A stretch of DNA of 64,000 nucleotides from Eledone cirrhosa (Eukaryota), in NCBI GenBank assembly GCA_964016885.1, contig OZ024759.1, positions 6,882,001 through 6,946,000 of the forward strand, written 5' to 3'. Shown here in pieces: positions 677 through 59,920 of this stretch. Each line of letters starts with the position of its first letter. Position 1 is the stretch's first letter. Under the pieces are notes generated by a model. That model saw only the letters and a program-made list of their open reading frames with translations. It searched no databases and was not told the origin of the DNA. The translations under genes and the position numbers were made by a program.

Positions 677-1041
677 AATATGGTTTTATAAATATAGTTT
701 CCATTTATTTAATATCATTGTATATATATTATATATATTATATATATATTTATATATATTTATATATATATATATATATATATATATATATATATATATA
801 TATATATATATATATAGAGAGAGAGAGAGAGAGAGAGAGAGAGAGAGAGAGAGAGAGAGAGAGAGAGAGAGAGAGGGGGGGGGGAAATATACACGGGTGT
901 GTATGATTGTGTATAGAAGATTATATTAATAAGAGGAATTCCAACTTTGTCTGATTTACTCGTTTTATTTACAATCCTTTAAAATTTATAATGGTATTAT
1001 AATGAAATAGTATGATAGAATATTAAATGTTAAGTGTTAAT

Positions 1042-1080
1042 TGAACAAGTACTTTCATGCTTTCGCAATCTTCAGGTTCA
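1042..1080 (-). ncRNA. Minimal hammerhead ribozyme (left arm)
   Basis: Exact reverse complement of 1165-1203. Confidence 0.88.
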
Positions 1081-1164
1081 TAATGTGTGGTGACAGTCAA
1101 GTTTGCAATTTTCAACTGTGAAATGACAGTTGAAAATTGCAAACTTGACTGTCACCACACATTA

Positions 1165-1203
1165 TGAACCTGAAGATTGCGAAAGCATGAAAGTACTTGT
1201 TCA
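1165..1203 (+). ncRNA. Minimal hammerhead ribozyme (right arm)
   Basis: tgaac-CTGAAGA-t-tgc(gaaa)gca-t-GAAA-gtac-TT-gttca. Confidence 0.88.
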
Positions 1204-1441
1204 ATTAACACTTAACATTTAATATTTTATCATACTATTTCATTATAATACCATTATAAATTTTAAAGGATCGTAAATAAAACGAGTAAATCAGACAAAG
1301 TTGGAATTCCTCTTATTAATATATATATATATATATATATATATATATATATATATATATATATATATATATATATATATATATATATATATATATTATA
1401 TATATATTATATATGTTATATATATATTTATATATATATAT

Positions 1442-4400
1442 CTAGGGCGGGTAAAATTCCGAAGATCCATGGACGAGTTCTCTCCAGCGGTCTCTGTCCC
1501 TCATTATCGCTGCCATGTCCTGCGTCTCCAACAGAGCAGTGTCTGTCCTTAGGGCATCAACATACGTTAACTTTGGTCTTCCGCTTCCAGTGTGTCCATG
1601 TAGGGGCTCCCAAAGGAGCACTGAGTGCAATGTCAACTCTGGATGTCGGTGAGCATGTCCAGCTAACCTCAGTCACCTGTGTCACTTTTGAGCTGACCTT
1701 TGGGATGCTCCCATACAGCTCTGGGTTTTTCATCCTCAGTGTATACTGATTAATGTTCAGAGCCATCCTCAGTATTCTCGTGAAGCGCCCATCCACCATC
1801 TGAGTGAGTTTCTTGGTCAGTGTCCAAGTCTCAGACCCATACAGCAGCACAGACTCCACAACAGCAGTGAAGAGGCGGATTTTCAGGTCTTTACGAAGGT
1901 CCGACTTCCACACCGATCTTAAGCTGTGGCACGCTGCCCAGGCTCTGTTCTTCCTCTCAACCACATCATTTTCCGTATTCCCAATCTTTGCTCCCAAATA
2001 CAGGAATCCCTCAACCAATTCTAGCGGCTTCCAGCCTACATTAGTGATCCCCTCTGGCTTCTCAACATTCTCTACCAGATATTTTGTTTTAGTCTCATTC
2101 ATTCTCAGCCCCACACTCATCGACACAGTCTCAACCTCCCGCATCAAATCCTCTGCCTCCTTCACTGTATTTGTCACCAAAACTATGTCGTCGGCAAATT
2201 CAGCATCCGATACCTTTTTCGCCCTAACTCTCCTACCCTGAGCCGGTGCTACAGTAAAGCCAGAGTCCTGGTGTTTCTGCAGTGCAAGGCGCATACAATA
2301 GTCCACTACGATGAGGGAGCCAATGTATCTCCCTGGAGCACTCCAGCCAGTATCTCAAAGAACTCTGTCATCCCATCAGGTGTAATGATTTGGGCTTTGG
2401 TGTTGGTGTAGAGCAGTGATATCAGGTCTACTATCTTCTTGGGGATTCCATAAGCCTGTAAGATCTTCATCAGGCATTGACGGTCCACAGAATCAAAGGC
2501 CTTCCTAAAGTCAATGAAAACCATGACCGCAGGAAGGCACTTTGCTCTAGCTCCCTCTAATATCCTCCTCAGCATCAGGATGTGACTGGTGGTTGATCTA
2601 CCCTCTCTGAAGCCGTTCTGGTTGTCCCTGAGCCTCTTCTCCATCTCAGACTGGATCCTGTTAAGAATCATCATGTTGAGGGTCTTTGCCACAAGTGACG
2701 TCAGTGAGATCCCCCTGTAGTTGTTGGTGTTAGAGAGATCTCCCTTCTTTGGCACTGGGGCGATGTTACTGATCCTCCACTGATTCGGGGAAACTCCTTT
2801 CTCCAGTGCCCGGTTACAGAACCCCAGGATGATATCATCAAAATCACACCTCTTCATCACCTCTGATGCCACTCCATCTTCTCCACGAGCCTTGCCCTCC
2901 TTGATCCTCTTCTTGGCTCTCTGAAGCTCCTCTCTGGTGAAGGGCTCTGTCTCAACATCCAGTTCCTCAAACAGCCGCCTGATCTCCCCAGTGCTCTGGG
3001 CTGTGGAGGGTGGCTCTCCTAGTAGGGTCCTAAAATGGTCTAGCCATTTCTTCTTCCTATTCTCAGGCCCAATTCCCTGGATCTGACTCGAACACCTTCT
3101 CTTCCTCCGTGTGATCTCGTTGATGATCATCCAGCTCTCCTTACATCCAGACCTACCAACCGCTCTCTCCACACTTCTGATCTTCTCTATCAGTGCCTCC
3201 TCTCTGACCTCAGTGTAAGCGGTACAGAGATCTTCCCTCATCACCTCCACAGTCTCCATCTTCTCCTTCGTAGGATCAGCATAGAATTGGTCCTTGGCAG
3301 CTTTCATGTGTTCTCTGGCTGCACACACTTTTGGGTTTTCAGAACTGACTTGCTTCCTTTTGTTCTTTTTCCTCGGCACCAGGGTTTCACTTGCTTCCGC
3401 TACTGCATTGGTGAAGTGCCCGTACCTCCTCGTCACACTCTCCTCAGTCCATCCAATCTCTCTCTCCTCTGACTCTCCACACAGGGAACTGAACCTGTTC
3501 CTCACTTCCACTGTGGATCTCTCCTGTAGCTTATCATCTTCCTTGAAAGCTCCCCAGTCATAGATTGCTCTCCGGGGCTGAGCCTTGCTCTTTCTTAAGC
3601 TCAGCCGGACCTCACTCATAACAAGCCAGTGGTCACTACCCAGTGTACTGAAATAGTTGTATGGTTCTGTGTTTAGAACACTATTCCGCCACTTTTTCCT
3701 CACCAGAATGAAATCAATCTGGGACTTGGACAGGTGCATATCTGAGTTGTAGGTCCACATCTTCCCCGGATTCTTCCTAAACCTTAGGTTATTCGCTATC
3801 AAGTTCGCCTCCAGCAGGCTGTCTCTCAGTAGTCTTCCATTTCGGTTGATGTTGTTATGGAAGAACCAGCAAGTATCTTCACTGCCCTCCTTACTCAGAT
3901 GTGCATTGAAGTCCCCCAGAACAAGCAGGATGTTGTGTGCTTGAGTGGTGTTGACAGCTCTACACACCTCCTCATGGAACTCTTCTGCACTCACATCACT
4001 GTCCTCCTCGGTTGGACTATAGGCTGAGTTGATTGTCAGTCTTGGGTTTCCATTGAAGGTCAACCTCAACACTCGTGGGGAGACAGGCATTATTTCCCTC
4101 ACCAATAGACTGGTTTTTGTGCTGAAAACAAAACCCACTCCTCCTACTGCAGCATTGGTCATGTTCCTCACTGCCGATGTGGTGATGAGCTGGCTCCTCT
4201 CCCCAATCATCACACTCCTCACGGGCTCATCGTGTAGGATCCTGTGTTCTTGGATCGCAAGTATCTGTATACCACTCTCCTCGAACAGATGTCCCAACTC
4301 CGCTCTCTTCTCCAGTGTCCGAATAGTCCTCACATTCAAAGTGCCCATTTTAATGCCTCTTCTGCAGGACAAAACTGCATTCTTTATATTTGTCTCAGAG

Positions 4401-58025: not shown

Positions 58026-58467
58026 ATGTATATATGTGCGTGTAAATATATATATATCGGCAGTATTGTGACACAGCAATACACACACACACACACACAC
58101 ATAAGGTAGAGAGAAATAACAACACAATCGGTAGAGTATATGGAAGGAATATATTAGGTTAACGCTTGAAACAGCAGGAAGAGGGTCTTAACATTTTGGA
58201 CACTAGTCTTTAACACACACCACCTTCAGCCCTCCCCGCTCGGACACCCCGTCTCCCTCTCCCCACTCCACCCAACACCACCCCTACACACCCCACACCC
58301 TTCCACCACCTGTTTACCCCCCTTTTAATTTCAGTTTATTTTGATCATGCCTTTATTTTTAAATTTATCTTTATTTTTTATTTTTTCATTCGCACCGTTT
58401 CCTTTCGCTATATGTCTCTCCACCACTCCCCTACACACCCTTTGAACTCTGTTCCCACACACTTCTC

Positions 58468-58499
58468 ACCTGAGGAAGGGCTTATGCCCGAAACGTCGT
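58468..58499 (+). ncRNA. Minimal hammerhead ribozyme candidate
   Basis: ac-CTGAGGA-a-gggc(ttat)gccc-GAAA-cg-TC-gt; stem I only 2 bp; downstream 58500-58590 recurs inverted at 60018-60104. Confidence 0.6.
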
Positions 58500-58959
58500 C
58501 CCCCACCTACACCCCACTCTCCAGAGCGTGAAATTAATAAACATTTGTTGTACTGCCTCTCTGTTTTGTCCCTGTTCAAATTTTTCCATTATATATATAT
58601 ATATATATCATAAATCATGTCTTTAGAATCATCAGATAAAATATATACTATTTCTTCTTCTAATTAGCATAATTAACAATATAAAAAATCAATTAGATCA
58701 AGCTATAAGAAGAAAGGCTCTTATAGAGAAATCTCCGACAAATAACCGAACGTAGCCTCTTCGCGGCGGCCCCAATCGAGTATTTATCCAACATTTCGAC
58801 AGCATGTAGAAACTGACTAAATATATCATCAACCATACACAATTAGGTGTAAAATTAAACTTAGAAGAAATGCGTACATACCGTATATCTATAACTTTAT
58901 GTATATGTTAACCTTTATATATATATAACGGCGATGAATTAGTTTTGCGAGGTTTTTGA

Positions 58960-59510
58960 TATGAAATCGTGTATCGAAACAAATGTTGTTATACTTGGGG
59001 AGGGTCATATTTGTGTAATATTGCCAGAATTAATAACAGAACACACTCACTGTTTGGTTGGTTTTCGCTTCTGTGTCTTTTATATCGGTTAATTTAATTT
59101 ATTCGATCCTCAATGTTACCATTGACTGACCAACGGTCAAAAATACAGATACAATATAGACACAAACACATAGTCTATCAAAGTTCTTTCGTTGCACATC
59201 TGCAATAAACAGACTAAATAAAGATGGCGTAGGCATACAATGCAACGGGAGGAAACATAATAACACCAGTGATGATGTTGCAGATGTGCAACGAAAGAAC
59301 TTTGTTAGACTATATATATGTGTTTGTGTCTATATTGTATCTGTATTATTTTTGACCGTTGGTCAGTCAATGGTAACATTGAGGACCGAATAAATTAAAT
59401 TAACTGATATAAAAGACACAGAAGCGAAAACCAACCAAACAGTGAGTGTGTTCTGTTATTAATTCTGGCAATATTACACAAATATGACCCTCCCCAAGTA
59501 TAACAATATA
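58960..59510. repeat. Fold-back of a diverged relative of the 8885/20643 PLE 3' end
   Basis: 58985-59204 mirrors 59278-59507; degenerate HHR GTGATGA-t-gttgca(gatg)tgcaac-GAAA-gaac-TT at 59269-59302. Confidence 0.85.
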
Positions 59511-59576
59511 TATATATATATATATATATATATATATATATATATATATATATATATATATATATATGAGAGAGAG

Positions 59577-59920
59577 AGAATGCGAGGTAGTTTCAGATTT
59601 ATTGATAGGGCTCTGATACATATTTCAATGGTGACAGAGGCCACGCGGTGCCGCCTAACCATTGCCATGATCTCATCAGATAGCTCTATTACGTTCTCGA
59701 GGCAAGGGAACGGGCGAAGGCTTCAAAAACATCATCTTTGTCAGCTCCCTTGTCGTTATAATTTGGATTACCTTGAGAACGTAAACATGTTATGTAACAG
59801 AGCTGTCTGGTGTCATGGCACTGGTTAGGTGGAATCAAGTGGCCACTGTCATCATTGAAATATGTATCACAGCCCTATCAATAAAGGACTTTAACGTCTG
59901 AAACTACTTCGCATTTTCTT
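59577..59920. repeat. Imperfect fold-back with an HHR in the left arm
   Basis: 59600-59690 mirrors 59800-59885. Confidence 0.78.
59610..59684 (-). ncRNA. Hammerhead ribozyme with long stem II
   Basis: Reverse complement: gctat-CTGATGA-gatcatggca...tgtcaccatt-GAAA-tatgta-TC-agagc; the mirror copy has the better stem I gctgt/acagc but a broken core. Confidence 0.65.

Follow-up and report, generated by a model that had tools for sequence, protein, structure and literature searches.

EN+ Penelope-like elements (PLEs) have been described (PMC3846280; PMC8557442) with head-to-head inverted arms, solo pseudo-LTR (pLTR) stumps, partial tandems, a hammerhead ribozyme in the pLTR, a tail at one end only and (TA)n targets. 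Head-to-head is given as the most frequent arrangement in PMC3846280, and PMC8557442 treats the formation of tandem and inverted structures, and the choice of microsatellites, as an open question. The anole Poseidon element, a predicted dimer, nicks and extends both strands of an AT-rich target, using an uncleaved RNA template and two fixed internal starts that bracket the tail; in vitro, its start sites are alike on both strands and it starts without target homology (PMC11167929). L1 twin priming leaves two outward 3′ ends, with internal pairing of the second primer and short deletions or duplications at the joint (PMC2837659; 10.1101/2024.08.27.596794). Animal non-LTR retrozymes consist of non-coding units in tandem, all of which have a type I hammerhead (10.64898/2026.07.22.740005).

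We analyzed 14 intervals, here c1–c14, listed in a preliminary description of a single 64-kb stretch of Eledone cirrhosa DNA (OZ024759.1; the window), to which all cassette counts refer. They share every EN+ PLE trait named above. Because head-to-head is already described as the most frequent arrangement, their polarity is not new; publications likewise cover the layout, the one-arm tail and the bias toward (TA)n, and with the architecture known the cassettes alone would hold no surprise for a specialist. They depart from the accessible descriptions in the length of the tails (19–89 nt, compared with 30–40), in having one tail in every intact pair where the published wording is “often” or “optionally,” and in non-overlapping arm-plus-tail cases, which those descriptions lack.

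Results

The preliminary description reported inverted pairs in all 14 intervals. Self-BLAST and arm alignments bear this out for 13 of them, whose arms align over 44 to 411 nt with 78–99% identity (c1, 198 nt/99.0%; c2, 310/95.8; c3, 200/98.5; c4, 164/92.7; c5, 124/96.8; c6, 172/89.5; c8, 44/93.2; c9, 296/98.6; c10, 99/96.0; c11, 411/98.1; c12, 192/94.3; c13, 232/94.4; c14, 129/78.3). The exception is c7 (20643–21510), in which an 805-nt antisense arm and a 53-nt sense piece have no overlap and ∼4 template nt are missing between them. Inner ends differ from copy to copy. By eye, eight arms end within the ribozyme or at most 21 nt upstream of it, and among the cassette arms no inner end was seen at the hammerhead cut site.

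Library or assembly chimeras would yield identical arms at random positions, whereas the arms differ by 1–22%, indels included (51 of 76 mismatches across 11 pairs are transitions), and end on recurring element sites with the same polarity in 14 of 14 cassettes. These observations, and the presence of other repeats inside c6 and the insertion at 4854–5376, make chimeras or post-insertion rearrangement at (TA)n cruciforms a very improbable origin, even though an unlisted palindrome of the c4 family (31127–31469) does resemble a rearrangement: its arms are 99.4% alike, its 3′ ends point inward, its center lies within a hammerhead and the adjacent c9 end is lost. With this opposite polarity it stands outside the pattern. 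The arm mismatch spectrum is that of DNA divergence and is uninformative on editing. Overlaying sequencing runs on 14760–20345 showed the c5 and c6 families, c6 tail included, to be high-copy (four of 19 listed runs); no read piece crossed a cassette center among the 24 shown, nor was an empty site legible, in an overlay swamped by multi-copy repeats.

The reading of the cassettes as PLE insertions proved sound: they are pLTR stumps of about ten Penelope-like families, with octopod proteins as the best named relatives. The right part of c9 (28863–31129, plus strand) contains a 5′-truncated PLE frame with the RT end, a Cys motif and, at the C terminus, a GIY-YIG domain (29569–29955; Pfam E = 2e-6), followed by the 3′ UTR; the upstream frame has a YLDD motif, and homologues carry PF01541 and PF00078. 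The pLTR of this part (30777–31129, plus strand) is partly tandem and has lost its outer ∼100 nt and any tail. The c7 left arm includes the C-terminal, GIY-YIG-like end of a frame, similar to that of c9 by eye and without a Pfam match. In both frames a C-X4-C-X2-C motif precedes GIY-YIG, which corresponds to the Neptune/Nematis-type CX2-5CxxC as given in PMC8557442. No PLE coding region was identified in the other 12 cassettes, over all arms but the long one of c4, and these were assigned from their ends. We rejected Naiad PLEs, which have an N-terminal endonuclease and no hammerhead, because the c7 and c9 endonucleases are C-terminal and most families have a hammerhead, and also MITEs or other DNA transposons with equal terminal inverted repeats, because all 12 intact pairs have unequal ends and the inner ends vary.

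Partial tandems are present in c9 and c11. The right part of c11 (46045–47164, plus strand) comprises 2.5 retrozyme-like, non-coding tandem 432-bp units, of which two are full and have complete type I hammerheads (46479 and 46911), as in non-LTR retrozymes. Unlike the described retrozymes, the c11 array has an inverted arm and P/D ends (see below), as PLEs do. Its left arm is 98.0, 97.3 and 94.5% identical to units 3, 2 and 1, respectively, with individual sites in conflict on the source unit. Among 80 metagenome relatives kept of 169, no hammerhead-bearing inverted pLTR was found beside the frame, in short-read contigs that break at such repeats; some inverted repeat occurs in eight (L007, L009, L017, L032, L065 and L067 were inspected in part, L038 and L061 left out). 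The hammerhead motif lies on the reading-frame strand in 25 of the 80 related loci and on the opposite strand in five.

The left arm is antisense and the right arm sense in all 14 cassettes, as had been proposed (p = 6e-5 if random). That proposal had used hammerheads for orientation throughout, and this holds for 12 of the 14, in which the relaxed version of a purpose-made descriptor locates a core or half-core; the arms of c5 and c9 have none and were oriented via the GIY-YIG reading frame in c9 and homology. The strict version gave 17 matches, compared with 0–1 in each of 30 shuffles. An Rfam scan of the window returned 129 matches, none at gathering score and none to a hammerhead family; the sub-threshold matches are hairpin and TA look-alikes.

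The two ends of a cassette are unequal in all 12 intact listed pairs, which exclude c9 (right end lost) and c7 (non-overlapping). One arm stops at P, a proximal site, and its partner continues for another 19–89 nt to D, a distal site; the preliminary description had overlooked this asymmetry. Left arms lie on the minus and right arms on the plus strand. The D end is on the left in c1 (886–1119, hammerhead 1042–1080), whose ∼36-nt tail (886–921) is unique to this cassette; its right arm (1126–1318, hammerhead 1165–1203) passes at P into (TA)n. In c4 the left arm (10113–10420) reaches D with a 38-nt tail and has a jump or deletion at ∼10315, so that the true center is at ∼10421, and the longer right arm (10421–11374, variant hammerhead core 11293) ends at P. 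The left arm of c5 (17951–18101, no hammerhead) has a 27-nt tail unique to c5, and its longer, P-ended right arm (18103–18291) belongs to the c9 family. A 19-nt tail marks the left arm of c8 (25944–26006, D), opposite a longer P-ended arm (26173–26280) whose variant hammerhead has a long stem II. In c10 a ∼74-nt tail unique to the cassette ends the left arm (45309–45478, hammerhead core 45439), and the right arm (45517–45617, core 45556) ends at P. The left arm of c11 (45634–46033, hammerhead 45900–45942) ends at D and its tandem right part at P. In c13, a relative of the c3 family, the left arm (58928–59205) reaches D with a 58-nt tail and the right arm (59278–59505) ends at P.

The order is reversed in c2, where the longer left arm (5404–5757, hammerhead 5618–5660), of the 432-bp-unit family, ends at P and the right arm (5785–6107, hammerhead 5830–5872) has a tail of 23 nt, short of its family's usual D. 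Left arms ending at P are also found in c3 (8887–9082, hammerhead 9037–9079; right arm 9087–9356, D, 56-nt tail, hammerhead 9104–9146), in c12 (48297–48480, hammerhead 48339–48404; right arm 48486–48758, D, ∼89-nt tail, hammerhead core 48565) and in c14 (59575–59692, hammerhead core 59679, meeting (CT)n and then (TA)n; right arm 59794–60000, D, ∼81-nt tail). The P-ended left arm of c6 (18308–18470, variant core 18369) may extend to ∼18700; between it and the right arm (20096–20349, D, 83-nt tail, variant core 20197) lies a LINE fragment (18716–20002, plus strand), RTE-like by eye, with further copies in the window. The left arm of c9 (28473–28862) likewise ends at P.

In three insertions the D arm consists of the tail only, starting at most ∼8 nt from P and not overlapping its partner. 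These are c7 (left arm 20646–21450, P, with hammerhead 20791–20833 and 3′ UTR; sense arm 21451–21503, D, starting ∼4 nt past P) and two added cases, one of the c14 family (antisense arm 4854–5295, minus strand, P end, other repeats inside at ∼4896–5250; sense arm 5296–5376, plus strand, starting ∼2–4 nt past P) and one of the c12 family (antisense arm 20406–20462, minus strand, P end; sense arm 20463–20552, plus strand). The c4 family supplies two more tail-only pieces, which start ∼3 nt from P. With the three non-overlapping cases the asymmetry is 15 of 15 (p = 3e-5 under independent 50:50 choice) or, if a possible exception is included, 15 of 16 (p = 3e-4).

The sites recur. One P is common to c3L, c7L and c13R, and another to c5R and c9L; one D is common to c3R, c7R, 21875–22003 and 44609, and others to c11L and 148–446, to c8L and 44252, and to c4L, 9404 and 9994. 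Eight of the 12 intact pairs have a tail with a second copy in the window, and the c6 tail is backed by public contigs. No second copy was found within the 64 kb for c1, c5 and c10, the tails of which could be flanking DNA. At P, template and target usually share an alternating-TA match of 4–7 nt: runs of 4 nt or more occur at 10 of 15 junctions, compared with 7.7% of random template positions, and in about seven of ten families (p = 2e-6), with little or no match in c2, c8, c10, c13 and c14.

The preliminary description had both arms primed from the RNA 3′ end. This part finds no support: plain dual priming there predicts equal ends, which are seen in 0 of 12 pairs, and the arms start at two different internal sites. 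The template continues past D in the 432-bp tandem family, where the c11 unit itself runs past D, and by our own count the hammerhead cut site lies ∼120–280 nt upstream of both P and D. Together these place P and D as internal starts on uncleaved RNA.

The arms of a cassette share 4–69 variant columns with each other and 0–4 with outside copies (six of six cassettes tested), which indicates that both come from one source. By sequence comparison, one RNA, two transcripts of one locus and gene conversion would fit equally; the shared variants do not separate them. They do tell against a model, close to that of the preliminary description, in which each break end is extended on its own RNA, with an asymmetric dimer or the nicking order setting D and P. 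Such dual priming, postulated for L1 (PMC2837659), would give long overlaps without strand displacement; two possible mixed-family joins (9470–10028 and 37600–37860) could reflect the use of two RNAs or else just insertions of later date, and in a 55-bp palindrome (37871–37981), of a family without an established PLE link, both arms end at one site. Tail-only arms halt at P much as they would on running into another enzyme that occupies the same RNA, and we regard two RNAs as unlikely.

A strand that folds back and copies itself (proposed in PMC3846280), the hairpin then being resolved by the endonuclease through staggered cutting at P and D (suggested for the tail in PMC8557442), is the published reading. 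It accounts for the shared variants and the single tail per insertion, and c1 and c12 are near-perfect palindromes with 5–6-nt loops. Yet the central joints readable against other copies (c2, c3, c5 and c11) hold inserted bases and, by eye, no fold-back homology; the TA match at P is left unexplained; and tail-only arms without overlap are not producible by a hairpin, so that the three non-overlapping cases need later deletions each ending at most 8 nt from P. Self-priming thus appears an improbable source of the cassettes.

Outer ends mostly adjoin AT microsatellite, as first described. Taking a terminus as positive when (TA)n is matched at 8 or more of the 10 adjoining positions, we found 25 of 31 termini positive, tails counted (27 from listed cassettes, four from the two added cases), compared with a background of about 5%; the anchors were picked by eye, and the count is circular for c1, c5 and c10, whose distal ends are set by the TA tract itself. 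Of the other six, three run first into (C)n/(CT)n/(AC)n and three meet degenerate TA. The outer coordinates given earlier often omit the tail of one arm; corrected ends include 886, 10113, 17951, 20349, 45309, 48758, 58928 and 60000.

Discussion

Two target-primed cDNAs joined centrally, as the preliminary description proposed, is the best reading of these insertions. All 15 have the geometry of twin priming, with two fragments and both 3′ ends outward, and asymmetric, recurring P and D ends fit L1-style twin priming better than two 3′-end primings or hairpin self-priming. The cassettes are thus probably, in our moderately confident view, truncated PLE insertions in (TA)n-type microsatellites, ended at a family-specific P and at D and made by twin priming on one uncleaved RNA. 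We infer this mechanism from one window, in which we observe PLE identity, polarity, recurring ends and tail-only cases as well as a TA match at P. The GIY-YIG enzyme would nick (TA)n on both strands, and one target end would be extended from D. The other end would pair at an AU-alternating spot, P, 20–90 nt upstream and be extended from there. The D-primed cDNA might halt once it arrives at P, which would leave a non-overlapping inversion, or strand displacement might let it read through and so produce an inverted duplication; host end-joining would then connect the two cDNA ends, often with a few added bases.

The Poseidon element resembles this locus in its bracketing internal starts, uncleaved template, AT-rich target and extension of both strands. 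In vitro it uses the same sites on both strands and starts without target homology, whereas here each end has one site and P usually matches (TA)n, so strict P–D pairing and the TA match at P are not predicted from those results; the readable proteins here, moreover, have the Neptune/Nematis-type Cys motif. L1 shares the outward 3′ ends, internal pairing of the second primer and a small deletion or duplication at the joint. Here, by contrast, the second priming site has a fixed position near the first, poly(A) is lacking, the endonuclease is GIY-YIG, and the overlaps of 44–400 nt are far longer and commoner than the duplications of L1, which have a median of 22 bp and accompany 17% of inversions. 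Our literature search, in which subscription papers were outside the scope, found no twin-priming model of PLE inverted pLTRs.

Octopods are known for heavy RNA editing. If read through, the cassettes would give many long perfect hairpins in an octopod, possible substrates for ADAR or Dicer as the preliminary description suggested, and the suggestion that pairing would mask the ribozyme agrees with the predicted folds: read-through hairpins of c1, c3 and c12 are modeled at −288 to −349 kcal/mol with the core fully paired. A literature search on Penelope hairpin siRNAs returned reviews only.

P–D pairing, the halting of tail-only arms at P and the TA match there reduce the question of how PLEs form these structures and choose microsatellites to simple counts on any assembled genome and to a single experiment with two RNAs in the in vitro system already in use. 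Tentatively, and with somewhat less confidence than in twin priming of these cassettes, we suggest that PLEs may integrate by programmed twin priming, in which one dimer on one RNA would use an obligate D start and a proximal AU-alternating start, so that all two-armed insertions would be P–D and never D–D or P–P. If this is true, a single mechanism would account for the tail and the inverted pLTR of PLEs and for their preference for (TA)n.

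Polarity and identity of the cassettes

The window is AT-rich animal DNA, dense in (TA)n tracts and pieces of mobile elements. The preliminary description listed 14 inverted pairs, numbered here c1-c14 in order (924-1320, 5405-6105, 8885-9360, 10150-11380, 17985-18295, 18305-20260, 20643-21510, 25940-26283, 28471-31130, 45383-45612, 45635-47165, 48300-48662, 58960-59510 and 59577-59920). Thirteen are indeed inverted pairs (44-411 aligned bases, 78-99% identity), whereas c7 is not, consisting of a long antisense arm and a 53-nt sense piece with zero overlap. A strict hammerhead descriptor yields 17 matches in the window (0-1 per shuffle, n = 30 shuffles), and a relaxed descriptor adds further variant or partial cores. 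Because hammerhead and reading frame share a strand in 25 and lie on opposite strands in 5 of 80 related loci, we take the hammerhead strand as the sense strand of the element. The hammerhead gave the orientation of 12 cassettes and a GIY-YIG frame that of c9, on the assumption that the right arm of c9 runs the same way as this frame; c5 was oriented through its homology with c9. The claimed polarity, an antisense left part and a sense right part, is found in 14/14 cassettes. The claim that the outer ends abut (TA)n also stands, for 25 of 31 termini with tails counted (background ∼5%), 3 of the 31 being defined circularly.

The cassettes are stumps of pseudo-LTRs (pLTRs, the terminal repeats) and shortened copies of ∼10 Penelope-like element (PLE) families, with one retrozyme-like tandem, c11, among them. 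The c9 protein has its best named relatives in Argonauta and Octopus, pointing to an octopod as the likely host. Passages of earlier work describe PLE repeats with hammerheads (PMC4209133) and retrozymes as PLE derivatives (10.64898/2026.07.22.740005). The layout seen here, an inverted 5'-truncated copy adjoining at the 5' end, is described for PLEs in parts of PMC8557442, together with a 30-40-bp tail, often at one end only, and a (TA)n bias. Sections of PMC3846280 report that one of two inverted PLE pLTRs bears the tail and that head-to-head is the commonest arrangement. Position 4 of the hammerhead core, normally U, is C or A in c4, c6 and c8. Since c4 and c6 carry the change in each of their two arms, it was likely already present in the template.

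An unlisted palindrome at 31127-31469 has 169-bp arms of 99.4% identity with their 3' ends inward. Its center falls inside a hammerhead belonging to a long antisense copy of the c4 family, and the adjoining end of c9 is missing at the same point. The structure resembles a product of break repair or an error in the assembly.

Unequal arm ends and internal start sites

In 12/12 intact pairs, among them c1, c5 and c10, whose tails lack a confirming copy, one arm terminates proximally, at a site P, whereas its partner extends 19-89 nt farther to a distal site, D, a difference that the preliminary description overlooked. c9 was omitted from this count because its right end is destroyed. A second copy of the tail, the stretch from P to D, is present in the window for 8 of the 12; the c6 tail is multi-copy in public contigs, and the c2 tail is shorter than usual for its family. 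Three arms of the c3 family have a common P and four a common D, and both sites recur in separate insertions of other families as well. Nested repeats and recurring ends speak indirectly against chimeras, as do arm divergences of 1-22% in which transitions dominate (51/76 mismatches), and rearrangement or artefact is a very improbable origin.

The preliminary description had both ends of a (TA)n break prime from the RNA 3' end, with the cDNAs joined centrally. The c11 tandem unit runs past D, however, which places D inside the RNA, and priming did not start from the RNA 3' end. The hammerhead cut site is uninterrupted in arms holding the hammerhead 3' half; the template was therefore uncleaved RNA. 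A possible exception to P-D pairing is an unassigned 55-bp repeat (37817-37981 and 22083-22137). Two of its arms form a small palindrome and terminate at one common site, and there is a third arm in addition. We found no published description of P-D pairing in the literature searched; older subscription reviews may contain one.

Probable twin priming on one RNA

We lean toward twin priming on one RNA as the origin of the cassettes, because of tail-only arms near P, a TA match at P and insertions at the joints. In c7 and in two added insertions, 4854-5376 (c14 family) and 20406-20552 (c12 family), a P-ended antisense arm is joined by a tail-only sense arm starting at most ∼8 nt from P, the geometry of L1 twin priming with a small deletion as set out in portions of PMC2837659 and 10.1101/2024.08.27.596794. 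At P junctions, template and target have in common an alternating-TA run of at least 4 bases in 10/15 cases (7.7% expected), representing ∼7 of 10 families. Four central joints could be read by comparison with other copies, and all four contain extra bases and lack fold-back homology. The P arm reaches further 5' than the D arm in c2, c4, c5, c7, c8 and c11; the reverse holds in c3 and, presumably, in c9.

Private variants are common to both arms in 6/6 cassettes tested and thus show one source, though not necessarily one molecule. Use of two RNAs, one per primed end, is unlikely; the equal-ended 55-bp palindrome, and families that may be mixed at two joins, do count against a single RNA. Arm overlaps far longer than those of L1 also argue against twin priming. 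Self-priming, put forward in part of PMC3846280 for inverted PLE structures, and followed here by a staggered cut, accounts for the overlapping pairs but fails for the non-overlapping ones, and we consider it doubtful. Twin priming on one RNA can be compared with an anole PLE in vitro, for which extracts of PMC11167929 describe nicking and extension of both strands and predict a dimer. Two internal starts bracketing the tail and an uncleaved RNA template agree with our observations, whereas initiation without homology and, in these extracts, no start-site difference between strands count against twin priming.

Other repeats

Tail-only pieces of the c4 family (18-35 bp; 9373-9438, 9994-10028) all lie at most 800 bp from c4 within the window, and one is joined to an antisense segment from a different family (9470-9990, kin to 28200-28341). 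In the region 44250-44585, a c8-family D-ended antisense arm is followed by a small hairpin (44381-44423) and ∼160 bp of unassigned sequence reaching a TA tract. The region 15445-15838 holds nested 47-bp inverted repeats and a partial third arm. An almost complete PLE-like element of a different type (11391-15426; RT motifs by eye, hammerhead at 15326) lacks an inversion and is bounded on each side by a 40-bp direct repeat; a Pfam search of two of its frames gave no match, and a decayed relative lies at ∼42540-43350. Downstream of the PLE frame in a related locus, a 253-bp palindrome without a hammerhead sits at one end of the contig (L032:2704-2956).

We rejected the inverted pairs at 33341-34625 and 40820-42445 as PLEs; by eye they are two Tc1/mariner-like DNA transposons with equal terminal inverted repeats. 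A tRNA-like SINE (by eye; 27302-27520, 37600-37816) is bounded by TA tracts. Its end has six bases in common with that of the 55-bp repeat, to which one copy is directly fused. A LINE (1447-4736) with a minus-strand 756-codon endonuclease and RT frame has (TA)n at either side; LINEs too occupy TA tracts here. Homogeneous minisatellite arrays span 49211-53505 (57-bp unit), 53912-54894 (32-bp unit) and 56708-57377 (75-bp unit).

Predicted hairpins and implications

Folding of read-through transcripts of c1, c3 and c12 predicts a hairpin irrespective of the strand transcribed. By geometry, the first-transcribed arm is always antisense. The predicted folds pair the whole hammerhead core, consistent with the suggestion that pairing masks the ribozyme; transcription initiated at the center would leave the hairpin absent. 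The cassettes are real and of an already known kind, and their polarity is already in the literature; the pairing of P with D, observed in this one window, is a useful addition.
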